Virus record (IMG/VR): IMGVR_UViG_3300033485_000001
Span: 114,540 to 178,539 of that record
Length of the DNA stretch: 64,000 nucleotides
DNA from: a virus
Reading direction: 5' to 3' (one strand)
Below the pieces are notes generated by a model. That model worked only from the letters and a program-made list of their open reading frames with translations. It made no database searches and was not told the origin of the DNA. Made by a program: the position numbers and the translations under genes. Shown here in pieces: positions 5,975 to 54,359 of the stretch. How positions within the stretch are numbered: the stretch's first letter is position 1; each line of letters starts with the position of its first letter.

Positions 5975-6042
5975 GAATGAAGCTCATGTTGACCCCCTAG
6001 AGGACTGTGATCCTCGATGATCGGGGGTTGCGGAGGCAGCAA

Positions 6043-9000
6043 GTGGCGAGACTTGACCCGGCCGAGGGGTTCGAGATCCTCAAGAGTCATGTGAAGGACG
6101 CGATCTCCAGCTCGTTCCCACAGGAAGGAGCCAAGAACGTCCTCAAGCTCGAGAGCCTGGACATCCCCGACAAGCTGAGCGTCAGCAACGTCGGAGAGCA
6201 GAAGGCCGCCAAGATGAACGGGCGCACCTGGGGCGTTCCCGTTCACGCGACGCTGGTGCTCGAAGACAAGAAGACAGGCAAGGTCCTTGACCGAAGCAAG
6301 ATCAAGATCGCCACGCTGCCCAAGGTGACCAACCGCTACTCCTACATCGTGGAGGGGTCGGAGTACCAGGTCGACAACCAGTGGCGGCTCAAGCCGGGCG
6401 TCTACACGAAGGTCCAGCAGAACGGTGAGCTGGATTCCTTCTTCAACATTCAGGGGCAGCCGCTGCATCTCGGCTTCGACCCGAAGGAGCGGTCCTTCGT
6501 GATGAAGCACGGAGGAGCGCAGCCCCCGCTGTACCCGATCATGCGGGCTCTTGGTCACAGCGACGGTGACCTCGAGAAGGCGTGGGGCAAGGACATCCTC
6601 AACGCCAACATGACCGACAGCCGGGGGAAGGTGCTGAAGGTCGACAAGCACGCCATCGCCTTCGCGAAGCGCCTGGTGCCAGAGGAGGAGATCACAACCC
6701 TCGAGAAGGCGTCGGAGGTCATCAAGCAGAAGTTCGCCGAGTCGCGTCTGCACCCTGACGTAACGAGCCGCACGCTGGGCAAGGCCATCGACAAGATCAC
6801 ACCAGAGGCGATGCTGCGCTCGTCTCAGCGCCTTCTCGGCGTGGCTCGTGGGACCGAGAAGCCTGACGTCCGGGACTCACTCATGTTCAAGGAGTTCCTC
6901 AGCACCGAGGACTTCATTGGGGAGCGGATCAAGCAGAGCAGCCCGGTCATCCAGCGTCGCATCGGGAACAACATCGACAGGCGGGACAAGATCCGTGACA
7001 TCGTGGGCATGGATGTCTTCCAGCGACCCGTCAAGGAGTTCTTCTCCAAGGTGTCCCTGGCCTCGACCCCAGAGCAGACCAACCCCCTCAAGATGATCTC
7101 GGGTCAGCTTCGTACAACGATCGCTGGGGAGGGTGGCGTCAAGGACGCGAACAGGATCACAGAGGATGCGAAGCTGGTGGACCCAAGCCACTTCGGCGTT
7201 CTCGATCCACTGCACACACCGGAGAGCGTGAAGACCGGCGTGAACCTCCAGCTCGCCCTGGGGACCAGGAAGGTGGGGACTCGCGTAGAGATCCCGCTCA
7301 TCCACGCCAGGACCGGGAAGGTGACCTACCTGGATCCTGGGAAGATCAACGACGCCATGGTGGCGCTTCCCGATTCGGTGAAACGGGTGAACGGGAAGTT
7401 CTCTCCGAAGGAAGGATCCACGGTCCTGGTGAGCGGTCCTGGAAACGAGCTGATGCGCGTTCCCATGAAGGATGTCGAGTACGTCGTGCCGCGCTCGAGC
7501 CAGATGTTCTCGATCGCCACGAACATGGTCCCCTTCATCTCCAGCGATTCGCCGAACCGAGCAACCATGGCCGGCAGGCACATGGAGCAGGCCATCCCGC
7601 TCGTGAACCCAGAGGCCCCGCTGGTGCAGTCTGTCCTCGGCAAGAAGAGCTTCGACGAGCTCGTTGGTTCCTACGCCTCCCATGCGGCGCCGGCGGACGG
7701 GACCGTCCTGCGTGTCGAGAAGGACGCCATCCACATCAAGGGCTCCGACAAGAAGACCCACATCGTCCACACCTACGATCACTACCCGACCAACGACAAG
7801 AAGGGGATGATCCACAGCAACTCACTCGTGAAGGCCGGCGACAAGGTCACGAAGGGTCAGGTCGTAGCCGACACCAACTTCACCAAGAACGGCGTCTACG
7901 CCCCAGGCAAGAACCTCCAGGTCGCCTACATGCCGTGGCGGGGGTACAACTTCGAGGACGGCGTGGTGATCAGTGAGACTGCTGCGCAGAAGCTCACGAG
8001 CGAGCACCTCCACAAGAAGGGCCTGTCCACGAAGGAGGCGCAGCTTCTGGGGACGAAGAAGTACCAGGCGTACTACCAGGACCGTCTCAACAAGGAGCAG
8101 GCCGCCAAGCTGGATCCTGACGGAGTGGTCAAGCCTGGGATGAGGGTGAAGCCAGGAGACACGCTGATCGCAGCTCTGGCGGAGCAGCAGCTCACCACCG
8201 AGGAGCAGAAGCTGAAGCTCTTGCACAAGAGCTTGGTGAGGCCGTTCAAGGACAAGGCAATCACATGGGACGAGGACGTGGAGGGGGAGGTCATCGAGGT
8301 CAACAAGAGGGGGACCAGGGTCGACGTCCACGTCAAGACGGCGGAGCCGATGGACGTGGGGGACAAGCTGGTGGGTCGTCACGGAAACAAAGGAATCGTG
8401 ACGATGATCCTACCAGACCACGAGATGCCGAAGACGAAGGACGGGAAACCGATCGAGGTGATCATGAACCCCATCGGGACCCCCGGCCGTATGAACATTG
8501 GACAGGTCCTCGAGACGGCTGCCGCAAAGATCGCGCAGAAGACTGGTCAGCCCTTCAAGGTCACCAACTTCGAGGTGGAGAACAACCTCGAGTTCGTCGA
8601 GAACGAGCTCAAGAAGCACGGGCTGACCGACAAGGAATCGATCATCGATCCGAAGACGGGCAGGGAGATCCCGAACATCCAGGTTGGCCCGCAGTACATC
8701 CTGAAGATGGAACACCAGGTCGGGAAGAAGATGGCTGCCCGATCACGGGATTCTTACGACCGCAACCTGGTGCCGAAGGGTGGCGGTCCACACGGAGCTC
8801 AGGCCCTCGGCTCGCTCGGCATCTACTCCATGCTGGCCCACGGTGCCAAGGCCAACATCCGGGAGATGCAGACCTACAAGAGCGACAAGTCGCAGGGTGG
8901 TGACAACGACGAGCTCTGGAGTGCGCTCCAGGCTGGTGAGATGCTGCCCCCGCCCAGGACCACCTTCGCCTACAACAAGTTCAACTCCTACCTGAAGGCG

Positions 9001-12000
9001 CTCGGAGTGAACACTGAGAAGGACGGCAACAGCCTGAACCTCGTGCCGCTCACGGACAAGGACGTCCTCTCGATGTCCAACGGCGAGCTCAAGGACGCGG
9101 GCCGCGTCGTGAAGATGAGGACGCTCCAGCCGGAGAAGAACGGCCTCTTCGATCCGAAGATCACAGGCGGGCATGACGGGACCAACTGGTCCCACATCAA
9201 GCTCACCTCACCCATGCCGAACCCCCTGTTCGAGAAAGCCATCATGAGCGTGGCTGGGATCCGTGGTCCGCAGTTCGACAAGATCATAGGTGGCACGGCG
9301 GGTGTGACGAAGGACGGCGCCATCGTCGAGCAGACGGGTGTGAAGGGGGCGACCTACGGACCCGCAGCGATCGATCACTTGCTGGCGAAGGTGGACATCA
9401 AGAAGGACCTCGCGGTGGAGGAGGCACGGATCCAAGGGCTCAAGGGCCAGCTTCAGAACGAGTCGAGGCGCAAGATCAAGTACCTCCGTGCGTTGGACAA
9501 GCTGGGCATGAAGCCGACTGACGCCTACATGATGAAGCACGTTCCGATCCTGCCTCCGAACATGCGGCCCATCGCCGTGCTCGATGACGGGAGCCTCCAG
9601 ACCGATGACCTGAACGAGATCTACAAGCAGCTCGCGATCGTCAACAAGAAGCACGGCGAGTTTCCGGCCAACGCGCCGCAGTCGCTCAAGGCCCCGCTCC
9701 AGGAGGACATCTACGATCACCTGAAGTCCCTCACTGGGCTCGGTGGCACCCTCAACAGGAAGCACCCTGGCATCCTCGACGTCCTCTCAGGACGTGAGGG
9801 ACCGAAGACCAGCTTCGCACAGGACGTTCTGATCAAGCGCAAGCAGGACCTCACCATGAGGTCCACCATCGTCCCGGAGCCGTCCCTCTCGCTGGACGAG
9901 GCGGAGATCCCGAGGAAGGCTGCGAAGGAGATGTACAAGCCCTTCCTGGTCCGGGAGCTGCGCCGCACAGCCGGAGTCACCCCGCTTGCCGCCAAGAAGA
10001 TGATCGACGAGGACGACCCGCTCGCGAACAAGGCGCTGGATCGTGTGGTTCAGGAGCGCCCTGTGCTGCTGAAGCGCGACCCGGTCCTCCACAAGTACGG
10101 CATCCAGGCGTTCAAGCCACGGCTCGTCGAGGGGAAGGCCATCAAGATCCACCCCCTCGTGTGCTCCGGCTTCAACGCCGACTTCGATGGCGACACCATG
10201 AGCGCCTACGTTCCGATCACGGCGGAGGCCGTGAAGGAGGCGGAGCAGATGTTCCCCTCGCGGAACCTCTTCTCCCCGGCCACTGGATCCGTCATGTACA
10301 CCCCCGGCCACGAAGCGCAGGTCGGCCTGTTCATGATGGCCGACGCTGGGAAGTGGACTGGTCAGCGGTTCAAGAGTCAGGCCGAGCTCGAGAGCGCGGT
10401 GAGAGCCGGGAAGGCGACTCAGAACGACGTGGTCATGGTGGGGAACGTCAAGACCACGCTCGGGAGATTGCAGATCAACAGCCACCTCCCAAAGGATCTC
10501 CAGGGAGGGAAACTCCTCACCGATCTGAACTACAGGTTCACGAAGAAGGAACAGGAGAAGCTCTTCAACGGCATGGTCAAGGTCGACCGCGCCGCGTATC
10601 CGTCTTCGATCAACAAGCTGAAGGACCTCGGGAACGAGGCAGCCACGATGGGCAGCTTCAGCTTCGGCCTCGGAGACTTCAAGGTCCACAAGGACATCCG
10701 TGATCCAATCCTGCGAAGCGCGGAGGCAAAGGCGGCCAAGCTGGACCTGTCCAAGAAGGATCAGCTCAACAAGTTCATCGACATCTACGAGGGCGCGACC
10801 AACGAGATCGATGAGAAGCTGAAGCAGCGCATCGCCGACCCCAAGTTCCAGACCAACCTCGTCAAGCTCGAGGTGGCAGCTGGGATCAAGGGAAGGGGTC
10901 TGCGGCAGCTCACGGCAGCCCCAGTTCTCTTCGTAGACGGCAAGGGCGAGGTGGTCACCAGCCCCGTGAAGAAGTCCTACGCAGAGGGCCTCTCGTCAGG
11001 GGACTACTGGGCGGCGACCAGCGGCGGCAGGAAGGGTGCGATCCAGAAGGTCCAGTCGGTCAGTGAGCCGGGCTACCTGACGAAGCAGATGGCCAACAGC
11101 ACCCTCGACATGCTCGTGGCCGCCAACGACTGCGGCACCAGCCGAGGCGTGAACCTGCACGTGGACGAGCCTGATGTGATCGGCAGGTACACCGTCGCGG
11201 ACCTGAAGCTCCAGAAGGGAATCATCCCGGCGAACACCCTCGTCACGCCGGAGATCCTGAGCCGTATCAAGAACGCCAAGATCGACAAGGTCGTGGTCCG
11301 ATCTCCGATGCGCTGTGTCCACGGTAAGGGTGTCTGTGCGAAGTGCATGGGGCTCAACGAGAACGGGAAGCTCAACGATCTGGGAACCAACGTGGGCATC
11401 CTGGCCACCCAGTCCATCGGCGAGCGCGGCACGCAGCTTGCCATGAAGGCGTTCCACTCAGGCGGCGTCTACGAGGGCAGGGAAGCAGCCACGAAGTCCA
11501 TTGCAGCGGGTGGCCTCGACCGAGCCGGCAACATCCTGAACCTCCCGCAGAAGCTCAAGGGATCAGCGATCCTCTCGACCACTGTCGGTCGGGTGAACAA
11601 GATCGAGAAGGATCCCGCCGGCGGTGTTCGAGTCTCCATCGGGGACAAGGAGCACTACGTCCCCGCCGACCGAGCGATGCTCGACAAGGTTCGCGTGGGG
11701 TACCAGGTCAAGAAGGGCGATCCGATTACCAACGGCCCCGTCAACCCACACGAGCTGCTCCCGCTCACCAACATGAGCAAGGTGCAGGGTCACCTGGCGG
11801 GGGAACTCCATTCCATCTACGGGCAGTACGGCATCAAGCGGAGGCACTCCGAGCTCATGGTGCGGGCGCTCTCGAACGTGACCAAGGTCGAGAACCCCGG
11901 CGGCAACCCAGACCTCCTGCCCGGAGACTTCACGAGCACGAGTCAGGTCTACGAGTGGAACAAGCAGAACCCGAAGACCAAGCCCGTGGTTCACACCCCA

Positions 12001-12204
12001 GTTCTGCGCGGTGTGAAGACGATCCCCCTCGACATCCAAGAGGACTGGATGGCTCGATTGAACCACGAGCACTTGAAGAGTACGCTTGTGGAGGCGGCAC
12101 AGCAGGGATGGCAAAGCAACCTCCACGGCATGCACCCGATCCCGCCCCTCATGCATGGGGCCGAGTTCGGAAAGGGTACCAAGGACAAGCCCTGGGCCTA
12201 CTGA
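6043..12204 (+). CDS. rpoBC: Fused beta/beta-prime multisubunit (two-barrel) DNA-directed RNA polymerase
   Basis: Colinear beta motifs (EQTNPL, DPSHFG, YMPWRGYNFEDG, GDKLVGRHGNKG, NPIGTPGRMNIGQ) then beta-prime motifs (LPPNMRP, FNADFDGD at 10171-10194, GGRKG...GYLTK, QSIGERGTQL). Likely start is GTG 6043 (GGAGG at 6032); the ORF is open from 6007. Confidence 0.95.
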   Translation: MARLDPAEGFEILKSHVKDAISSSFPQEGAKNVLKLESLDIPDKLSVSNVGEQKAAKMNGRTWGVPVHATLVLEDKKTGKVLDRSKIKIATLPKVTNRYSYIVEGSEYQVDNQWRLKPGVYTKVQQNGELDSFFNIQGQPLHLGFDPKERSFVMKHGGAQPPLYPIMRALGHSDGDLEKAWGKDILNANMTDSRGKVLKVDKHAIAFAKRLVPEEEITTLEKASEVIKQKFAESRLHPDVTSRTLGKAIDKITPEAMLRSSQRLLGVARGTEKPDVRDSLMFKEFLSTEDFIGERIKQSSPVIQRRIGNNIDRRDKIRDIVGMDVFQRPVKEFFSKVSLASTPEQTNPLKMISGQLRTTIAGEGGVKDANRITEDAKLVDPSHFGVLDPLHTPESVKTGVNLQLALGTRKVGTRVEIPLIHARTGKVTYLDPGKINDAMVALPDSVKRVNGKFSPKEGSTVLVSGPGNELMRVPMKDVEYVVPRSSQMFSIATNMVPFISSDSPNRATMAGRHMEQAIPLVNPEAPLVQSVLGKKSFDELVGSYASHAAPADGTVLRVEKDAIHIKGSDKKTHIVHTYDHYPTNDKKGMIHSNSLVKAGDKVTKGQVVADTNFTKNGVYAPGKNLQVAYMPWRGYNFEDGVVISETAAQKLTSEHLHKKGLSTKEAQLLGTKKYQAYYQDRLNKEQAAKLDPDGVVKPGMRVKPGDTLIAALAEQQLTTEEQKLKLLHKSLVRPFKDKAITWDEDVEGEVIEVNKRGTRVDVHVKTAEPMDVGDKLVGRHGNKGIVTMILPDHEMPKTKDGKPIEVIMNPIGTPGRMNIGQVLETAAAKIAQKTGQPFKVTNFEVENNLEFVENELKKHGLTDKESIIDPKTGREIPNIQVGPQYILKMEHQVGKKMAARSRDSYDRNLVPKGGGPHGAQALGSLGIYSMLAHGAKANIREMQTYKSDKSQGGDNDELWSALQAGEMLPPPRTTFAYNKFNSYLKALGVNTEKDGNSLNLVPLTDKDVLSMSNGELKDAGRVVKMRTLQPEKNGLFDPKITGGHDGTNWSHIKLTSPMPNPLFEKAIMSVAGIRGPQFDKIIGGTAGVTKDGAIVEQTGVKGATYGPAAIDHLLAKVDIKKDLAVEEARIQGLKGQLQNESRRKIKYLRALDKLGMKPTDAYMMKHVPILPPNMRPIAVLDDGSLQTDDLNEIYKQLAIVNKKHGEFPANAPQSLKAPLQEDIYDHLKSLTGLGGTLNRKHPGILDVLSGREGPKTSFAQDVLIKRKQDLTMRSTIVPEPSLSLDEAEIPRKAAKEMYKPFLVRELRRTAGVTPLAAKKMIDEDDPLANKALDRVVQERPVLLKRDPVLHKYGIQAFKPRLVEGKAIKIHPLVCSGFNADFDGDTMSAYVPITAEAVKEAEQMFPSRNLFSPATGSVMYTPGHEAQVGLFMMADAGKWTGQRFKSQAELESAVRAGKATQNDVVMVGNVKTTLGRLQINSHLPKDLQGGKLLTDLNYRFTKKEQEKLFNGMVKVDRAAYPSSINKLKDLGNEAATMGSFSFGLGDFKVHKDIRDPILRSAEAKAAKLDLSKKDQLNKFIDIYEGATNEIDEKLKQRIADPKFQTNLVKLEVAAGIKGRGLRQLTAAPVLFVDGKGEVVTSPVKKSYAEGLSSGDYWAATSGGRKGAIQKVQSVSEPGYLTKQMANSTLDMLVAANDCGTSRGVNLHVDEPDVIGRYTVADLKLQKGIIPANTLVTPEILSRIKNAKIDKVVVRSPMRCVHGKGVCAKCMGLNENGKLNDLGTNVGILATQSIGERGTQLAMKAFHSGGVYEGREAATKSIAAGGLDRAGNILNLPQKLKGSAILSTTVGRVNKIEKDPAGGVRVSIGDKEHYVPADRAMLDKVRVGYQVKKGDPITNGPVNPHELLPLTNMSKVQGHLAGELHSIYGQYGIKRRHSELMVRALSNVTKVENPGGNPDLLPGDFTSTSQVYEWNKQNPKTKPVVHTPVLRGVKTIPLDIQEDWMARLNHEHLKSTLVEAAQQGWQSNLHGMHPIPPLMHGAEFGKGTKDKPWAY

Positions 12205-20200: not shown

Positions 20201-21050
20201 CGTCCTCCTCGCTGTCCTCGTCCTTGTCGGAGAGCCAGAACCGCTCGAGCAGCGTTCGGGCGCGATCGTCCGACACCAGAGCGATCGCCTTCTCGGGGTG
20301 CTCCCCGTCCCGCAGGTCGATGCCGTCCTGCCAGCCGGGCTTGCCCTCGAAGCCGGACAGCTTGATGGTGTCGTTGGCTGCCCTCTTCAGGAGCGCGATG
20401 GGAAGACCAGTTGGCCCTCTCCGGACCGGGGCCATCTTGTAGTTCCCAGGAAGCTCCTCGATGAGCGTGCGCTGCTCCTTGGTCGTGTCGCACCCGTCCG
20501 CCACTCCCTTGAGCGGGGTGTGGCTCTTCTTGCCGCTCGGGTCGCCGGCGAAGAAGCACGGCTCCCACTCGGACCACTCTCGCCCGTTGGGCGGCAGCAG
20601 ACCGAACATGGCCAGGTCGCGCCTCGTGTTGAGGATCATACCGTAGCCGACGGTCTCCACCACGATCTCCTTCTGCGAGCGAGTCCTGATCTTCACCTTC
20701 GGCCCCTTGAGGAGGCCGTTGTAGACCATGAGGAGGTCGAGCCGCAGCTTGACCTTGACGCCCTCGACGATCTTCATCCAGGACACACCTTGGGTCTTGA
20801 TCATCTCCTTGAACATGTTGTCCGCCATGGCCACGTGCGTCATGCGGGTCATGGCCAGCTTGGATCCCAGGGCACCACCCTCGGTCCTGGCCCGCTTGAG
20901 GATCTCGTGGAGACGCTTCCCGCCGTACATCCGCAGCATGCGATGCGCCTCCTTGTCGGAGAAGCCCATGTCGACCGCTTTCGCGATCAGCTTCTCCTCC
21001 TTCTTGTCCTCCTTCTTGGGGGCGACCGATCCCTCTTCCACCGATGCCAT
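20169..21050 (-). CDS. Hypothetical protein with acidic C-terminal tail
   Basis: AGGAGGT RBS; upstream TATAAG promoter core. Confidence 0.75.
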   Translation of the reverse strand: MASVEEGSVAPKKEDKKEEKLIAKAVDMGFSDKEAHRMLRMYGGKRLHEILKRARTEGGALGSKLAMTRMTHVAMADNMFKEMIKTQGVSWMKIVEGVKVKLRLDLLMVYNGLLKGPKVKIRTRSQKEIVVETVGYGMILNTRRDLAMFGLLPPNGREWSEWEPCFFAGDPSGKKSHTPLKGVADGCDTTKEQRTLIEELPGNYKMAPVRRGPTGLPIALLKRAANDTIKLSGFEGKPGWQDGIDLRDGEHPEKAIALVSDDRARTLLERFWLSDKDEDSEEDDDEGGDIWDD

Positions 21051-21089
21051 CTTGCACCTCCTCCCTAACTAGGGAAACAGATCACTGCC

Positions 21090-21105
21090 ACATGAACCTT
21101 ATAGC
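21090..21105 (-). promoter_or_regulatory. TATAAG-core promoter
   Basis: The minus strand reads GCTATAAGGTTCATG, about 45 nt upstream of the 21050 start. Confidence 0.5.
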
Positions 21106-21107
21106 GG

Positions 21108-21136
21108 TTGGCTTGATCGATTTGTGGTGGTACTTT
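21108..21136 (+). promoter_or_regulatory. Sigma70-like promoter upstream of terminase
   Basis: TTGGCT-17 nt-TACTTT with an extended -10 TG. Confidence 0.4.
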
Positions 21137-21145
21137 CAGAGGCAG

Positions 21146-22966
21146 ATGCAAGCCGAACCTGTCAGTGACTACAGGGACTTCTACGTTGACGCCAAGCGAG
21201 CCGTAGATGCGGGAGTCTTCGATCAGAGCGTCGAGGATGGCATCGATGACTGGATGGCAAGGCTCAACGAGGAGGACGAGGAGATCGAGGCGATCCTTGC
21301 TGAAGAGGATGTGACGGACGGGACGTTCAAGCGCCCGCAGATGGAGATCCTCCCCTCCGAGTTCACCGAGTTCGCGATCAGAATTCCGGTGGCTGGAGAC
21401 CTCGAGCCCTTCAGCTTCGCGACCAGGCGCTACCTCAAGCCGGTCTACGACACGCCGGCGAGGAGGACGCTGCTCAAGTGCGCCCGGCAGACCGAGAAGA
21501 GCACATCGCTGGGCAACAAGAGCTTGGCGTACTGCGGGATCAACTACGGCTTCAAGGTCCTCTACGTCAGCGCCACGGCGACTCAGGCCCAGGTCTTCAG
21601 CGTCGACCGCATCAAGGAGCCGCTCGACATCTCCCCCGAGATGCGGTTCCTCATCGACACCCGGCTCAACCAGAACGTCCTCTTCAAGCAGTTCAAGAAC
21701 CGCTCGCAGATCAGAATCAGGTACGCCTTCCTGAACGCCGACCGGACGCGCGGCATCCCGGCGGACATGATCCTGATCGATGAGTTCCAGGACATCCTCT
21801 TCGCCAACGTCCCAGTCATCGAGCAGTGCGCCTCCCACTCCTACTGGAAGCTCTACTGCTACTCGGGCACGCCCAAGAGCTTGGACAACTCGATCGAGGT
21901 CTACTGGTCGAACTACTCCACCCAGAACGAGTGGATGGTCCCATGCGAGAGGCACGGTCACCCCGGCAAGCCGCACTCCTGGTTCTGGAACAACCTCGGC
22001 ATCAAGAACATCGGGAAGAAGGGATTGATCTGCGCCAAGTGTGGACAGTCCATCGATCCAACGCATCCCAGCGCGAGCTGGGCCTCACGACAACCAGTCA
22101 CCGAGGACAACGCCCACCGTGTCACCTTCGAGGGCTACCGCATCTCCCAGCTGATGGTCCCGTGGATCAGCTGGCAAGACGACGTCATCATGGCGCTCGA
22201 GCGGTACGGCACCGCCAAGTTCTACAACGAGGTGCTCGGCCTCTCCTACGACTCCGGTGTTCGCCCGCTCACCAGGACCCAGGTTCAGTCCTGTTGCCAG
22301 AACAGGATCAGGTTCGGTGATGTGATCGAGAACGCGCAGAAGTGCCACGGAGGTGTCTTCGTCGGCATCGACTGGGGCACTGGAGAGCAGGCGTCCTACA
22401 CCGTCGTCGCCCTCGGCGGGTACATGGGCAACGAGTTCCAGATCTTCTACGTTCACAGGTTCACGGGTGAGGACCTCGAGCCGCAGCGGCAGCTTCAGAT
22501 GATCGCGAAACTCCTGGTCGCCGTGAACTTCAAGATCATCGGAGCAGACTACGGCGGCGGCTTCGACAGGAACGACTTCCTCCAGAGGAACTTCGGAACC
22601 CTGCGCCTGGCCAAGTACCAGTACGCTGGATCTCCCAAGGCGAAGGTGAAGTGGCAGCCCAAGCTCGGCCGCTTCATCCTCCACCGCACCGAGATCATGA
22701 GCGACATCTTCAACGCGCTCAAGTACAAGAAGATCTACCTCCCCAACTGGGAGGAGTTCGCAACCCCGCACGGGGACGACATGCTCAACATCTTCAGCGA
22801 GTACAACGATCAGCTCAACATGATCCAGTACAAGCTGAGTCCTGGGAAGAGCGACGACACCTTCCACGCCGTCCTCTATTGCTTCCTGGTCTCCATGCTC
22901 ATGAAGCCCAGGCCCGACATCATCATCCCGCTTCACGCCGGACACGTGGACTTCAACCGGCGCTGA
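21146..22966 (+). CDS. terL: Terminase large subunit (lambda gpA-like)
   Basis: Walker A-like KCARQTEKST, Walker B RGIPADMILIDEFQD, nuclease VGIDWG and DDTFH, Zn ribbon CERH...CAKC. Likely start is ATG 21146; the ORF is open from 21044. Confidence 0.88.
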   Translation: MQAEPVSDYRDFYVDAKRAVDAGVFDQSVEDGIDDWMARLNEEDEEIEAILAEEDVTDGTFKRPQMEILPSEFTEFAIRIPVAGDLEPFSFATRRYLKPVYDTPARRTLLKCARQTEKSTSLGNKSLAYCGINYGFKVLYVSATATQAQVFSVDRIKEPLDISPEMRFLIDTRLNQNVLFKQFKNRSQIRIRYAFLNADRTRGIPADMILIDEFQDILFANVPVIEQCASHSYWKLYCYSGTPKSLDNSIEVYWSNYSTQNEWMVPCERHGHPGKPHSWFWNNLGIKNIGKKGLICAKCGQSIDPTHPSASWASRQPVTEDNAHRVTFEGYRISQLMVPWISWQDDVIMALERYGTAKFYNEVLGLSYDSGVRPLTRTQVQSCCQNRIRFGDVIENAQKCHGGVFVGIDWGTGEQASYTVVALGGYMGNEFQIFYVHRFTGEDLEPQRQLQMIAKLLVAVNFKIIGADYGGGFDRNDFLQRNFGTLRLAKYQYAGSPKAKVKWQPKLGRFILHRTEIMSDIFNALKYKKIYLPNWEEFATPHGDDMLNIFSEYNDQLNMIQYKLSPGKSDDTFHAVLYCFLVSMLMKPRPDIIIPLHAGHVDFNRR

Positions 22967-22995
22967 GAAAAACGACATGGCCTGAAGATTTTCTG

Positions 22996-23024
22996 TTGAC
23001 AGGTCAGGTAGGCGGACCTATAAC
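22996..23024 (+). promoter_or_regulatory. Near-consensus sigma70 promoter
   Basis: TTGACA (22996-23001)-17 nt-TATAAC (23019-23024). Confidence 0.85.
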
Positions 23025-23030
23025 AGACAC

Positions 23031-23424
23031 TGCCTCGCGAGATCGAGGAGGCTCCGAAAGGATCCGAATCGCTCTCCGAACCGGGGAGGCCCCCGGAACT
23101 GCTGGAGGAGGATCATCCCCAACGATCCCAGCAGTCGGCCCTGGAGCGGAAGGGAAACCTTCCAGGGATGGTCGGCTCCAGGGAAGCTCGAGATGGGGCA
23201 GCGTGCGGGTAACACCGTTTCGTGCGTCCCATCGAAGAGTGCGGTGACGGATCGGATGTCCGGGCTGGACTCGAAAGAGGAAGGCGGCTCTGATCAGGGG
23301 AGGCGGCGTCGAGCTCGAACCCGTAGGCGCCAGGCCGGTGGGTAACACCATCGGTGGGGAAACCCGGATCGAGACGCGATGCGACGAAGGCCCGGTGGCG
23401 AAAGCTGTCGGGCCTTTCGTCTAT
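23031..23424 (+). ncRNA. Putative structured ncRNA of about 390 nt, unknown class
   Basis: Own promoter, 5'/3' closing helix, at least eight stems, five GAAA tetraloops, two GUAACA loops, terminal 17-bp hairpin, no credible ORF. Confidence 0.7.
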
Positions 23425-23440
23425 CTGGACCATGACCATG

Positions 23441-23488
23441 TAAGAAGATCACCCAAGGGGTGACCATCCCGACCGGCGGCGGGGTTGG
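23441..23488 (-). terminator. Twin-hairpin terminator (CCGCCG-loop hairpin, then GGTCACCC/GGGTGATC and TTCTTA)
   Basis: Nearly the same arrangement as 48068-48110. Confidence 0.7.
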
Positions 23489-23504
23489 TAGGTGCCGGTT
23501 GCGG

Positions 23505-23999
23505 CTAGCGGCGGGCGCTCTCGCGGTCGCCCTTGCGGTCGCCCTTGCGGGGCTTCTCGTCGTCCTCGTCCTCGTCGTCCTTCTTGGACTTGGACTTCTT
23601 CTTGCGCTCGGGGGTTCCGGCGATCTCCTCGCGGATCGCCTGGACCAGCTCTCGCGCGTCGAGCTGTCCGGCGTCCTTGATGGCGTCGCCGACTTCCTCG
23701 AGCGCCTCGCCGAACTCCTCGACGAGCTCCTCGGCGCCGTTCGCGATCGCGCACTCGAGGTCGTGCGCGTCCTCGGCGGCGTCGGCGGCCCCGAGGATCG
23801 TCCCGGTGATGCCGCCGACGACGAGCGCGGTGGTCTGGTCGACGGCGAAGAGCTGGCTCGCGACGAACCCGCCGCCGACCCCCACGCCGCCTCCCTTGAT
23901 CCCTCCCCGAATGACCTTCTCGGAGTGTCGCTTGACGCTGCCCCACCGGGTCGGCTTCTCGATCTGGATCCCGAGTCTCTTCTTCTTCCCCTTGGACAT
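23505..23999 (-). CDS. Protein with basic N-terminus, glycine-zipper helices and acidic C-terminal domain
   Basis: AGGAGGT RBS; own promoter and terminator; very high GC3. Confidence 0.75.
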   Translation of the reverse strand: MSKGKKKRLGIQIEKPTRWGSVKRHSEKVIRGGIKGGGVGVGGGFVASQLFAVDQTTALVVGGITGTILGAADAAEDAHDLECAIANGAEELVEEFGEALEEVGDAIKDAGQLDARELVQAIREEIAGTPERKKKSKSKKDDEDEDDEKPRKGDRKGDRESARR

Positions 24000-24041
24000 G
24001 TGCACCTCCTTGCTTGCAAGCAAATGTAGGGGTTTCCAGTA

Positions 24042-24083
24042 CATTGATCTTATATACTGGGAGGTGCTGGGATTTTCACTTTT
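24042..24083 (-). promoter_or_regulatory. Bipartite promoter AAGTGAAA-N17-TATATAAGATCAATG
   Basis: Same spacing as at 48545-48587 and 54319-54359. Confidence 0.75.
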
Positions 24084-24822
24084 AGCTGATCTGAAGGTGT
24101 CCGGGACGGCCTGTGACCTTCAACTGCTTGGCGAGATGATCGAAAAGCTCGATGTCGGACGCAGCGAGCTTGGCGAGGAGCTTGCGGGAGGGTCCTAGTT
24201 GAGCAGCCTTCTCCACGAAGAGCACGGCGATGGTGGCGAGGTTCTTCCTGCCGAAGTGGAGGAGGTCTCGAAGGCGTTGGAGATCGAGGTTGGTCTGGAG
24301 ATCCTTGTGCTGCCCAACGAAGCGGGTCATGTCCAGGCAGAGCCGGTAGAAGGTCTGCCAACTGTGATCCACGTTCATCATCTCGTTGAGCCTGTCGATC
24401 TCCACCTCAGTGATCTTCATGAAGACCTCGGCGTACTTCAGCATCTCGTCCACCGGCCACGCCTCTCGGCCCATCGACAGCATGGCGTTCTCGTGGAGGT
24501 TCTGGAGAGCTGCATCCTCCAGGTGTAGGAACCTGGAGGCAGACTGGCTGTTCACCTCCAGCAGCAGGTTGATCGCGTTCTCCAACCGCTGAACCTTCTG
24601 CTCCACGAAGAGGAGCCGCCTGATCAGCTCTCCCGGCTTCATCTCCCCGGCGATGTTCAGCCGGTGGATGTCGGCCAGGTCTTCCTGGCGGACGAAGATG
24701 TTGTCGCCCTCCGCCTTCCAGCGCATGAGGCCCTGGTCGAGGAGATCGTGGACTCGCTTCGAGCTGAACCCCAAGATCTTTGCTGCCTCGGACACCAGTA
24801 GGTACTTGACATCGCTTCCCAT
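24082..24822 (-). CDS. Excisionase/MerR-like (HTH_17-type) DNA-binding protein with coiled coil
   Basis: YLLVSEAAKILGFSSKRVHDLLDQGLM; heptad segment LIRRLLFVEQKVQRLENAINLL. Confidence 0.7.
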   Translation of the reverse strand: MGSDVKYLLVSEAAKILGFSSKRVHDLLDQGLMRWKAEGDNIFVRQEDLADIHRLNIAGEMKPGELIRRLLFVEQKVQRLENAINLLLEVNSQSASRFLHLEDAALQNLHENAMLSMGREAWPVDEMLKYAEVFMKITEVEIDRLNEMMNVDHSWQTFYRLCLDMTRFVGQHKDLQTNLDLQRLRDLLHFGRKNLATIAVLFVEKAAQLGPSRKLLAKLAASDIELFDHLAKQLKVTGRPGHLQIS

Positions 24823-45150: not shown

Positions 45151-45151
45151 C

Positions 45152-48064
45152 ATGGCCGTCTACTCCTCCAGAGCTGAGTGGCTCGAGGCCCAGTCCCGGA
45201 GCCACTTCCACAAGCTGGGCTCCCTCACGGTGAAGACCGCCGACGTCTACTTCATGGGCAAGTTCGCAGCTCGTGCCCAGATGGAGAAGGTGGGCATCAA
45301 CGCCGTCAGCACGGCCAAGGCGGTCGGGGCGGCGGGCAAGTCCGAAGGTACGATCAGTCGAATCTTCGGTGCGATCAGACGGAAGACGCCAGCTCCAACT
45401 GGCGCGATTCCTCCTGCTCCGAAGCCGGGTCCTGGGACGCAGTTCATCCCAGGTCCGAAGAACACTCCGATGCCCAATCGGGGGTCGCAGTCGTTCGTCA
45501 CGAATCCGACTCATCTCTCCGATCCCGGAGTGAGTGGTGTCAGGACTGGCGCTGATCTTCCTGGAAGAGTGACTCCACGCCCAGACGCCACACCCACCGT
45601 AGGCTTCGTACCCGAAGGCGTTCAGGCGAACATCGCCCGAACACCAGGCGGCCTCTATACTCCTGGTTCCATCAAGTCGATGCCCCTGGAGAGGGTGCGA
45701 GAGGTTCACAACCAAGCGGTCTACGACGCGATGAAGGCCGAGAGCCGCGCGAATCCGATGAGTACTTACATCGGATCAAATCGTCCTGTATCGAGGACGA
45801 TGTCCTACGAGCGGGAGATGGGAGAAGCTCTTCCCATGTCCCAGACCGTCAACGTGGAACGGGCTGGGATTCCGTCGGCGGGCGCGTTGCCCACTGGGGC
45901 TGGAAGGCCCCTCGCAGCCCCCGCTCGATCAGCAGGAGCACAGGCGCCTGCTGCTACAGCTCCGAGATCGCAGGGTATGAAGCCGGTGGGCGAAGCCTCG
46001 GCGGCGGACATGGCAGCCCTGGAAGATCTCAGACGCGCTGGTGCGTCCGAAGAGCATCTGAATCAGTTGCGCCAGACATGGGGAGGACTCGGCCGCCTGT
46101 CCCCTACGAGTGCTCTCGCTCGTCACACCCCTGTGGTCGAGAACGTGGGTGGTACCGTCATGCGTTCACACCTCGCGGCTCACAAGTTCAACATGGTGCT
46201 GCTCGACATCATCGAGCGCAGCAAGCCGAGTGACATGATCAAGGCTGCGTCGCTCCGTGCCACGCTCGACGACGAGGGGATCCTCAAGGTGGCGTCCGAG
46301 GACAGCTACTGGCTCTCGGCCAGGGGCGAGTGCCACCTCGACTTCCTCGCCGGCGTCTACGACGTGAACCCGGACATGGCCTGGACCTTCGCCAAGAACG
46401 CCGGCCTGGACAAGGAAGCCGGGATCATCGGCGGCATCGGCAAGGTGCTCGGGTGGGGCGCTCGGACAGCTCAGCGTGGAGCACAGGCCGCAGGGCAAGC
46501 CGCCGGCTGGGTGGCAGGCAAGGGGCAGCAGGCGGTGTCTGCGTGGAAGGCGCCGCTCCAGAGCTCCATGGGATCCAAGTTCCCGATGCCGAGCAACCCG
46601 CTCGCTCGAGCCAAGGAGAGCATTCAGTCGTGGCGGAGCGGAGCCCTCGCCCCCGGAGTCGAGGGTCCGACGATCAGCCCCATGAGGCAGGCTGGTCGCG
46701 CTGTCGCATCGAAGGTCGAGCAGGCGGGTCAGGGTCTCAAGCGGGAGTTCCAGTCCGGGTACTTCCAGGGCAGGCACCCCGTTGCCCGTCCGCAGCCCGG
46801 CCCCAACGCCCCGCCCGCTCCTCCGAGATCTCAGCCGCTCCCTGGCGGTGGGACCGGAGAGGTTGATCTGGCTGCGCTGGCAGGTCGTGGTCCGACACCC
46901 GGTGCAGCAGCGGGCAGCGAGCTCGGCGGGGTCGCTCCGAGAGCGGCTGCTGCGGCTCCGGCTCCCGCTGCGGCGGCCACGGCTGCTCCCGCAACAACTC
47001 CTGGTGTGGTGCCTCGAGCGGCGCCGCCCGCTGCGCCACCTCCTGGCGCGGCGGTTGGGAGTGAGCTCGGTGGCGTCGCTCCTCGTCCCAGCGGACTGCT
47101 CGATGCGCAGGGCCGTCCGATGGGTGGGGCTCCGGCAGCGCCTCCGGGTGGTGGTCTGCTCGATGCCAGCGGCAGACCGATGGGTGGAGCACCTCCCCCT
47201 GCTGGTGGTCTGGTTGACGCTGGCGGTCGCCCGATCGGATCAGTGGCCACACCGACAGGTGGGCCAGGACAGCTCGCTCCTGGTCCCGTGGCAGCCGCAG
47301 CTCCGGCTCCAGCGACGGCAGCTCCGGCTCCAGCAGCCGCGAAGCCGAAGGGACGCGGCGGCAGGAAGAAGGCTGGCCCAGCAGCTGAGGCTCAAGCAGC
47401 GGGTCCTGGTGCAGCTGGCGGCGTGACTCCTCCAGCCGCAGCCCCCGCCCCCGCCGCAGCGCCCGCCAAGGGGGGACGAGGCAGGAAGAAGGCACAGCCC
47501 GCAGAGGCAGCGCCGCCCGCAGCAGCCCCGGCTGGTGAAGGCAGCGTGGTACCTCGGACCGAAGCCCCACCGGCAGGTCCCGCCGCTCCTCCCGGTCAGC
47601 CCGCATTCAAGCCAGACGAGGATGCTGCGGGGTGGGCTCAGCTCATGGAAGAGAGCCCGATGATGAAGAAGTTCCATAAGCAGGGCATCACCCCAGCAGA
47701 GCTCAGGCACATGGGCATCAACCCAGAGCAGTTCGGCCGGCTCGAGGCCGAGATGTCCAATCGAAGTGCCGCAGAAGGTCTCCAGGGGTTCCTCAAGGAG
47801 CGGAACGTCTCGCCCGAGATGTTGGAGCGGGCGGGCATCAGCCCTGATCTCGCGAAGCAGCTCGGTGGCAACAAGAGGGACTGGGGTACGCTGGGTGGAT
47901 TCGGTCGTGGGGTCCGCAACCTCGGGTACGGAACCCTCGCTGCCGGCACCATCCTCGGCGGCCTCGGACTCTCCACAGCCGGCAAGGTTCTCGACCGTGG
48001 ATCCGCTCCCTACCAGTACGGCATGGGCGCTCCTCAGACCTGGATGACCCCGCAGCAGATGTAG
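45152..48064 (+). CDS. Large Pro/Ala/Gly-rich low-complexity virion protein with internal repeats and a C-terminal glycine zipper
   Basis: K-x-A/G motifs; repeated peptides; GTLAAGTILGGLGLSTAG. Confidence 0.72.
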   Translation: MAVYSSRAEWLEAQSRSHFHKLGSLTVKTADVYFMGKFAARAQMEKVGINAVSTAKAVGAAGKSEGTISRIFGAIRRKTPAPTGAIPPAPKPGPGTQFIPGPKNTPMPNRGSQSFVTNPTHLSDPGVSGVRTGADLPGRVTPRPDATPTVGFVPEGVQANIARTPGGLYTPGSIKSMPLERVREVHNQAVYDAMKAESRANPMSTYIGSNRPVSRTMSYEREMGEALPMSQTVNVERAGIPSAGALPTGAGRPLAAPARSAGAQAPAATAPRSQGMKPVGEASAADMAALEDLRRAGASEEHLNQLRQTWGGLGRLSPTSALARHTPVVENVGGTVMRSHLAAHKFNMVLLDIIERSKPSDMIKAASLRATLDDEGILKVASEDSYWLSARGECHLDFLAGVYDVNPDMAWTFAKNAGLDKEAGIIGGIGKVLGWGARTAQRGAQAAGQAAGWVAGKGQQAVSAWKAPLQSSMGSKFPMPSNPLARAKESIQSWRSGALAPGVEGPTISPMRQAGRAVASKVEQAGQGLKREFQSGYFQGRHPVARPQPGPNAPPAPPRSQPLPGGGTGEVDLAALAGRGPTPGAAAGSELGGVAPRAAAAAPAPAAAATAAPATTPGVVPRAAPPAAPPPGAAVGSELGGVAPRPSGLLDAQGRPMGGAPAAPPGGGLLDASGRPMGGAPPPAGGLVDAGGRPIGSVATPTGGPGQLAPGPVAAAAPAPATAAPAPAAAKPKGRGGRKKAGPAAEAQAAGPGAAGGVTPPAAAPAPAAAPAKGGRGRKKAQPAEAAPPAAAPAGEGSVVPRTEAPPAGPAAPPGQPAFKPDEDAAGWAQLMEESPMMKKFHKQGITPAELRHMGINPEQFGRLEAEMSNRSAAEGLQGFLKERNVSPEMLERAGISPDLAKQLGGNKRDWGTLGGFGRGVRNLGYGTLAAGTILGGLGLSTAGKVLDRGSAPYQYGMGAPQTWMTPQQM
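46900..47500 (+). repeat. Degenerate coding repeats
   Basis: GSELGGVAPR x2; GL(L/V)DAxGRP(M/I)G x3; AAPAPA..K...GRKKA x2. Confidence 0.8.
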
Positions 48065-53946: not shown

Positions 53947-54320
53947 CATGAATCTCCGAGTTGACCAGTCCTTTCGGCTGTGGCCTGGTCCACAGCGTAC
54001 TGGGTCTGATCAACTCGGAGATTCGACCTTCTTCCTGTGGTGCCGGCATCGACCTTCGTTTTTCCTGGTGTCGATCGTCTCCCGTCCAGGTCGGGAGAAC
54101 GCACCAGTCCACCAGTTCTTTACCCCTCTGGTGGGAGGGGGCGGGGTATTCACTCCTGGCCAAGGAGCGCCCCAGCCCTCGATCTGTCCCATCGCCATCC
54201 ACGAGGTCGAGGACGCCTCGTGAAAGCCTGGGATGCGTATTGCGTGATCGCCCTCCCAGTAGGCGATCCCAAGCTGATCGACGGAGCCATTGATGAGGAT
54301 AGCTTGGTCTCCCCTGGCTC
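53947..54320 (-). ncRNA. Putative structured ncRNA of about 375 nt, unknown class
   Basis: Starts at the predicted +1 of a conserved promoter; 5' pseudoknot, at least nine perfect 5-7 bp stems, 15-bp terminal stem (53950-53964/54010-54024); no credible ORF. Confidence 0.7.
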
Positions 54321-54359
54321 AATGATCTTATATACAGGGCCTCCTGTGCTTTTTCGCTT
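54319..54359 (-). promoter_or_regulatory. Bipartite promoter AAGCGAAA-N17-TATATAAGATCATTG
   Basis: Conserved sequence and spacing. Confidence 0.78.

Follow-up and report, generated by a model that had tools for sequence, protein, structure and literature searches.

What occupies the space behind the large terminase gene of this phage, and is it an RNA gene? The genome is a 178.5-kb IMG/VR virus record with 62% GC that CheckV judges complete, of which we analysed bases 114540-178539; this 64,000-nucleotide stretch is referred to as the window, and coordinates are those of the window unless noted. The phage is uncultivated and has only distant kin among cultured phages, the large terminase subunit (TerL) being ~26% identical to Bacillus-phage terminases. 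The terL gene (21044-22966, plus strand) is identified by matches to Pfam GpA_ATPase (2e-07) and PHROG 675, terminase large subunit (9e-50). It is separated by a 538-bp gap (22967-23504) from a converging gene for a 179-aa Gly-rich protein (23505-24044, minus strand), and the next gene beyond encodes an HTH protein (24082-24822, minus strand). From the letters alone, an earlier sequence-only reading had proposed that the gap holds a large, ornate non-coding RNA. Overall, we consider this a credible and well-delimited, as yet unvalidated, candidate for an orphan phage non-coding RNA.

The gap carries no coding signal. Across 22980-23460, GC content is flat over the three codon phases, and both flanking genes show the phase signal; the lack of such a signal between two clearly coding genes is one argument for an RNA gene. 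ORFs of 41-115 aa do exist mechanically on both strands, and one or more of them might encode small proteins. Their GC3 is 0.56-0.73 compared with 0.84-0.92 for genuine genes here (0.88 for terL and 0.92 for the Gly-rich protein gene), and searches of the gap ORFs against Pfam and PHROG returned no match. The earlier statement that the region contains no plausible ORF therefore agrees with the phase signal, the GC3 values and the protein searches, and we regard a protein-coding role as extremely improbable.

The slot after terL varies among related phages. The ~460 bases at 22967-23427 share no similarity with the corresponding slot of L002/L049, L003 or L004, and similarity to L002 resumes at ~23428, which identifies a lineage-specific insert. 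In the closest relative (L002, the same DNA as L049; TerL 84% identical), the terL stop is followed by ~0.9 kb of unrelated, lower-GC DNA (L002:2572-3467) that has small minus-strand ORFs behind phage-type promoters, in cassettes bounded by repeated promoter-like sequences. The slot of L003 and L004 (TerL 65-68% identical) is occupied by a 91-aa minus-strand gene, and other relatives have a different insert or none, with 35 to ~900 bp of other sequence after terL. In the distant relative L061, the slot (L061:1367-1940) contains a small-ORF cassette between direct repeats of ~38 bp; this gap folds strongly on both strands (z about -4.5), and we rejected it as a related RNA. The 179-aa Gly-rich gene itself is syntenic, with homologues at the same position in L002, L003 and L004. 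Because the slots of relatives hold unrelated, self-contained cassettes, the place after terL appears to be a hot spot of cargo and cassette exchange, and an RNA gene would be one more self-contained cassette of this kind. A separate difference concerns the terminase gene: in some TerL relatives (34-48% identical; L005:2513-5524, L008:3887-6877 and L059:2755-5796) the ORF is ~1000 aa, extending ~400 aa further at the N-terminus than here.

Given the position beside a packaging gene, the candidate had been likened to the phi29 packaging RNA (pRNA), which is also a phage-encoded structured RNA. The phi29 pRNA, ~120-174 nt in length, assembles into a connector-bound ring by loop-loop pairing between molecules and is conserved together with the packaging motor. 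Searches with nhmmer and blastn found the candidate RNA absent from 42 loci that encode TerL relatives (19 from IMG/VR and 23 from metagenomes), including those with 84%, 68% and 65% identical TerL. Since it is missing from phages with an 84% identical TerL, the RNA cannot be an obligatory motor part, unlike pRNA. The presence of different, protein-coding cargo in that close relative, and of other cargo or none in distant ones, points to a lineage-specific cargo rather than a conserved packaging component, which argues against the packaging proposal.

The predicted RNA is ~390 nt long (23031-23424, plus strand) and has a minimum free energy of -200.5 kcal/mol. This corresponds to z -4.45, with none of 100 shuffles folding as well, and to z -4.55 in a repeat with 20 shuffles, whereas the minus strand reaches ~-165 kcal/mol (z -2.04 and -1.78). 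G-U pairs make up 15 of the 137 predicted pairs on the plus strand. The early suggestion that the plus strand is favoured is thus upheld, and the strand-biased fold with its G-U pairs argues for an RNA gene. The original observation thus stands with two caveats, namely that GC-rich phage DNA generally folds well and that this genome has other structured gaps. In a stricter control, 446 real 397-nt segments of the same genome were folded and energy was regressed on composition. Here the plus strand has a residual z of -2.4 and ranks ~6th (top 1-2%), and the minus strand is unremarkable (-0.5). As predicted by folding, the candidate RNA is clearly structured, though not unique within its own genome, and a rank only in the top 1-2% of real segments counts against the RNA-gene reading.

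Most of the helices originally drawn for the RNA recur in the predicted ensemble: the stems 23081-86/91-96, 23098-105/128-35, 23139-47/175-83, 23148-53/58-63 and 23192-97/228-33 have pairing probabilities mostly of 0.9-1.0. The closing helix drawn at 23032-39/23375-82 does not hold up, as it contains a C-U mismatch, has a pairing probability of ~0, and forcing it costs +5.8 kcal/mol. Closure is instead predicted at 23031-36/23300-05, which splits the RNA into domain 1, domain 2 and a terminal hairpin. Domain 1 (23031-23305, plus strand) is multi-branched and closed by 23031-36/23300-05 and 23041-44/23292-95 (P 0.94-0.97), and its inner junction helices are uncertain (P 0.3-0.5). It is predicted to contain a 6-bp hairpin (23081-23096; P 0.98-1.0), a hairpin with an 8-bp base (23098-23135; P 0.63-1.0), a 15-bp hairpin with a GAAA tetraloop at 23154-57 and an 11-nt asymmetric bulge at 23164-74 (23139-23183; P ~1.0), and a hairpin capped by the first copy of the 10-mer GGGTAACACC (23186-23240; GUAACA loop at 23209-14), all on the plus strand. 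Domain 2 (23306-23382, plus strand) would consist of an irregular stem, 23306-18/23369-82 (P 0.97-0.99 in its basal part), with two apical hairpins.

All five GAAA words in the RNA, at 23056, 23154, 23273, 23359 and 23400, are flanked by at least three complementary pairs and cap stems, as had been noted by eye, compared with 9 of 156 (~6%) elsewhere on the strand (binomial p ~8e-7). This non-random capping is further evidence for an RNA gene. The repeated 10-mer was also described correctly: GGGTAACACC has two copies in the entire genome, both inside the candidate RNA, and each caps a hairpin with a GUAACA loop.

Such features bear on whether the sequence acts at the level of DNA, as a pac or cos site, a recombination hot spot or an origin beside the terminase gene. 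The insert adjoins terL, and the slot has repeatedly gained and lost cassettes, some of them between direct repeats in relatives, as such an element might. Yet the fold is much better on one strand, the many G-U pairs would be mismatches in DNA, GNRA-type loops have no meaning in duplex DNA, and close relatives that lack the sequence must nonetheless package their genomes. A DNA-level element is, in our estimation, very improbable.

If the insert is an RNA gene, where would transcription begin? A putative sigma70-type promoter is present just as first described, with TTGACA at 22996-23001, a 17-nt spacer and TATAAC at 23019-23024 (22996-23024 in all, plus strand). An A/T-rich stretch lies immediately upstream, and the predicted start is ~23031. 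This is the only match to at least 11 of 12 sigma70-consensus positions on either strand of the 178.5-kb genome, and its placement exactly 5' of the first helix supports an RNA gene. In a genome-wide scan for hexamer pairs matching at least 5/6 + 5/6 positions (357 kb, counting both strands), there are two sites, and block shuffles yield 1-6; the genome is, if anything, depleted in sigma70-like sites. A consensus scanner was silent on the promoter because the last -10 base is C and not the highly conserved T, and the missing final T weighs against the RNA-gene reading.

The phage has transcription machinery of its own. A single 2065-aa ORF (6007-12204, plus strand) encodes a fused beta-beta' RNA polymerase, with Pfam Rpb2_6 matched at 4e-65 and with Rpb2 domains 3 and 6 and Rpb1 domains 1, 2 and 5. 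A promoter-like motif containing TATAAGATC has at least 13 copies in the genome, located in the window at 24054, 48560, 54334 and 5936 (all minus strand) and 61702 (plus strand), with the others outside it. The copy at ~24054 is the phage-type promoter of the Gly-rich protein gene. The motif comes in two flavours with different upstream elements and is also found in the relative L002, and several copies are located 6-7 nt before an ATG, which suggests leaderless mRNAs. The candidate promoter of the RNA lacks the TATAAGATC motif, and no other site in the genome comes as close to the canonical consensus. The simplest reading of this promoter is transcription by the host holoenzyme; the phage RNA polymerase could also act here, as the -10 elements of both promoter types share TATAA.

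At the other end, the terminal 17-bp hairpin that had been pointed out at 23383-23421 (plus strand) is there, with 17 pairs (6+11, one bulged base) and a GAAA loop. It is terminator-like in form, has no U tract and is absent from the terminator-scan list; we infer that it terminates the candidate RNA, and its missing U tract counts against the RNA-gene reading. The converging operon probably has its own terminator, a hairpin with a U-rich tail that can be read at 23449-23470 on the minus strand, before the RNA gene is reached, and an equivalent hairpin occurs at the matching place in L002. The strong 3' hairpin and the separate terminator of the converging operon both favour an RNA gene. No same-strand gene follows the candidate RNA, so it is not a 5' leader or riboswitch, both of which were also rejected for want of an Rfam match.

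The same stretch might instead be a cis-acting 3' region, that is, a structured 3' UTR, a stabiliser or processing platform of the terL mRNA, or a bidirectional insulator between the converging units. There is no terminator between the terL stop (22966) and the element, so terL transcripts could run into it, and this possible read-through is a point against an independent gene. The strong hairpins at 23383-23421 and 23449-23470 between converging genes would also suit a 3' region. Relatives, however, manage with 35 to ~900 bp of other sequence or no insert at all, and an ornate structure of ~350 nt with its own promoter exceeds the needs of termination. We consider a purely cis-acting role distinctly unlikely.

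Does the RNA belong to a known family? Rfam 15 gave no match over the window at gathering score, and ARAGORN found nothing there. On the gap (22900-23550) at E<=10, Rfam returned just two noise matches to eukaryotic families, at 16.3 and 15 bits, far below gathering. Families without a match include ROOL, GOLLD, OLE, raiA, HEARO, tmRNA, 6S, group I and II introns, pRNA and the self-cleaving ribozymes. Group II intron domain V, hammerhead, retron and bridge or omega RNA were rejected for lack of an Rfam match and because no RT, recombinase or TnpB gene is adjacent. The description as an unclassified phage RNA, non-coding in appearance and running from promoter to hairpin on the plus strand, is consistent with these Rfam results.

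No homologue was found either. The collection of homologues proposed at the outset was run over IMG/VR, metagenome contigs, GenBank phages and 401 Actinomycetota genomes, and came back empty. Comparison of the gap with GenBank phages by blastn gave no homologue, and the RNA is absent from the whole records of seven related viruses (G001-G007). In IMG/VR, an exact 29-mer recovered no homologue, a double 10-mer pattern gave 20 matches, all to collagen-like repeats, tRNAs and other unrelated DNA, and a pattern combining the 10-mer with a GAAA hairpin gave one match, within coding sequence. A three-motif pattern had no match in metagenome and genome contigs, and BLAST of the RNA against the 401 evenly sampled Actinomycetota genomes found no homologue; a 27-nt match among them was dismissed (~0.03 such matches expected over the search, with no extension). 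With no relatives in any database searched, the reality and role of the RNA rest on one sequence, and the failure to find a homologue in any search is a further count against the RNA-gene reading.

An orphan in a variable slot invites the view that the insert is a non-functional relic, either a decaying mobile cassette or captured host DNA, perhaps with part of the host rnpB in it, and with its structure a by-product of GC-rich, partly palindromic sequence. It would fit a sequence without conservation in the databases searched, a slot that serves as a dumping ground for unrelated cassettes, and a genome whose GC-rich segments often fold strongly, the candidate being ~6th of 446. A decaying sequence would not readily account for all five GAAA words capping stems (p ~8e-7), for a strand-asymmetric structure with 15 G-U pairs, for a unique near-consensus promoter exactly at the 5' helix, or for a 10-mer present twice in equivalent hairpin loops. 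Given the tetraloop statistics, the position of the promoter and the loop duplication, a relic is the less likely reading, and we assign it a minor, if appreciable, share of the probability.

RNase P features had been reported as absent, which is correct in one respect and not in another. The candidate is not an RNase P RNA: RF00010 and the other Rfam RNase P models find nothing on 22900-23550 at E<=10, and RF00010 finds nothing in the whole phage genome at the same threshold. However, GGGTAACACC with its adjoining GAAA hairpin matches the pair of hairpins, P8 and P9, of class A RNase P RNA. This P7/P8/P9-like module (23331-23366, plus strand) joins the second GGGTAACACC hairpin (23334-55) directly to a GGG/GAAA/CCC hairpin (23356-65). 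Over 35 nt it is ~83% identical to the rnpB genes of Kocuria, Nocardioides and Solirubrobacterales genomes, and this P7-P9-like arm is the best match of the RNA in each of these three actinobacterial genomes. A scan of 185,579 species genomes for GGGTAACACC, 3-14 nt and GGGGAAACCC returned 110 matches, 106 of them with a 5-nt gap; ~104 of the 110 are rnpB by their flanks, mostly in Actinomycetota and Chloroflexota. Six of eight pattern loci submitted to Rfam are class A RNase P RNA (217-326 bits) and thereby serve as positive controls for RF00010, and an rnpB alignment places the two motifs in P8, a hairpin with a UAAC loop, and in P9, a hairpin with a GNRA cap. The candidate has a second P8-like loop at 23205-18. 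By comparison with rnpB, a 9-mer at 23258-23266 (plus strand) is a candidate counterpart of RNase P conserved region I (the P4 5' strand), with whose core it is identical, in a non-canonical position.

How far does this resemblance extend? Two unbiased models were built from evenly sampled actinobacterial rnpB genes: an HMM on 28 genes, of which just one has the exact pattern, and a covariance model on 20 of the 5' regions, spanning conserved region I to J11/12; the loci of two of the sampled genomes (G013 and G030) were excluded from both and support no claim made here. The HMM recovers the P7-P9 piece alone, at a marginal E of 0.015 on 538 nt, and the covariance model has no match at 23250-23400 among its 32 matches at E<=10 in the window. 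Further RNase P-like segments (upstream of copy 1, E 0.032; P18/J18-2-like at 23139-23183, E 0.44) appeared only with an HMM of pattern-selected sequences, are gone with the unbiased HMM and were rejected. A P4-like pairing of 3+5 bp, drawn by hand, would join 23256-65 to 23363-70 in competition with the P9-like hairpin and the stem of domain 2; it comes with no recognisable conserved region V. The register of the P8-like stem is one base off that of RNase P, and its loop has 6 nt.

Might the RNA nonetheless derive from RNase P? The insert could comprise captured and remodelled parts of an actinobacterial host's rnpB, namely the P7-P9 arm, the core of conserved region I and a second P8-like loop, acting as a decoy of a host RNase P partner or as a reduced ribozyme for a phage tmRNA-tRNA-Met precursor. 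The phage tmRNA (L214:1435-1804, equivalent to genome positions 21235-21604, outside the window; RF00023, 128.5 bits; ARAGORN tag ANTDNYAPLAQAA) is directly abutted by a tRNA-Met (CAT) with no spacer, so the pair needs RNase P cleavage. The P8-P9-like module, the upstream 9-mer, the second P8-like loop and a 20-nt defining pattern that is RNase P in ~104 of 110 genomic matches all favour such an origin. On the other side stand the lack of any Rfam RNase P match at E<=10, the failure of the unbiased covariance model and the marginal score of the unbiased HMM, the non-canonical order of the modules, and the failure to recognise J18/2, P15 or a bona fide conserved region V. The phage also lacks rnpA (Pfam PF00825, none in the genome at E<=1), though a host RnpA could still serve. 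To our knowledge, and in the literature searched, no phage-encoded RNase P-like RNA has been described. We find derivation from RNase P quite improbable.

We read the RNase P-like module as the possible reuse or capture of one folding module, or as convergence on it. In RNase P, published structures show L8 and L9 to be helix-docking loops, which is in keeping with a compact fold held by the loops of the candidate RNA. A contig of Streptomyces turgidiscabies has an intergenic three-way junction outside rnpB (L095:5838-5888) with the same P8-/P9-like pair, a 6-bp closing stem and no Rfam match; this suggests that the P8-P9-like module may recur beyond RNase P. The actinobacterial rnpB genes that give the best matches, together with the GC content and the apparently leaderless phage genes, suggest an actinobacterial host.

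Set against known systems, the candidate resembles class A RNase P RNA (RF00010) in the succession of a P8-like hairpin with a UAACA-type loop and a P9-like GGG/GAAA/CCC hairpin at 23331-23366, in its overall size (~390 nt) and in its use of GNRA loops. It differs in that no P4 pseudoknot of canonical form was recognised, nor conserved region IV/V, J18/2, P15 or an S-domain T-loop module, and in that its similar pieces are out of canonical order; it is not a family member. ROOL, GOLLD, OLE and raiA are likewise stand-alone, GNRA-rich, multi-branched RNAs of several hundred nucleotides, and ROOL and GOLLD are often borne by phages or prophages. Unlike these, the phage RNA matches no Rfam sequence or structure, is smaller than ROOL, GOLLD and OLE, and is a single sequence, whereas those families are defined by wide conservation and covariation. 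Abundant GGA words had suggested a protein sponge, and with many such words in a non-coding RNA there is a likeness to CsrB and RsmZ. The 19 GGA words are not an enrichment (16.1 +/- 2.8 in shuffles; p 0.19), and 2 of the 19 are unpaired in the predicted fold, with none presented in a hairpin loop as in the CsrB/RsmZ sponges, so we set this proposal aside.

The genome has other structured non-coding regions. A second unclassified structured RNA candidate of ~380 nt is located at 53947-54325 on the minus strand (-173.8 kcal/mol, z -5.28), with a long GAAA-capped 3' hairpin and a phage-type promoter. It has no sequence homology to the 23031-23424 RNA, and a paralogous relationship was rejected; in the 95%-complete relative G002, where it was searched for, it is absent. 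The region 45151-46781 is 1.6 kb without coding signal, has a GC content of 0.65 and, among the genome's gaps, holds the 397-nt segment that folds most strongly (45601-45997, minus strand; residual z -3.98). That segment folds well on both strands, so it may consist of repeats or palindromes. For the RNA behind terL, the company of other stable RNAs in the same genome (tmRNA, tRNA-Met and the second structured candidate) adds to the case for an RNA gene.

So, what might the insert do? We give an even chance to its being a self-contained gene for a compact, trans-acting non-coding RNA of ~390 nt, an 'RNA moron' that this lineage carries as its specific cargo in a hypervariable slot. From the sequence and predicted fold we infer its transcription, ends, tertiary contacts and function. 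Transcription would start ~7 nt past the sigma70-type promoter, which resembles the canonical bacterial consensus, and expression by the host RNA polymerase, early or independent of the phage programme, is plausible. It would stop at the 17-bp GAAA-capped hairpin. The RNA would fold into the multi-branch domain 1 and into domain 2, and helix docking by its five GAAA tetraloops, and by two identical loops of the UAACA type that RNase P uses in L8, would be expected to give a globular fold. Such an RNA would be globular rather than an extended antisense regulator, and would most likely serve as a scaffold or decoy that binds a protein factor of host or phage. It could also be a ribozyme, which the first reading had suggested alongside a scaffold.

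At present, the value of the candidate RNA is that of a lead rather than a discovery. If real, it would found a new, so far single-member family among the few large, intricately folded RNAs borne by phages. It would also be a non-coding 'moron' under a host-type promoter, in a phage that for the rest relies on promoters of its own and on its own fused beta-beta' RNA polymerase. The RNase P-like P8-P9 module offers a concrete, testable handle on this RNA and points to an actinobacterial host.
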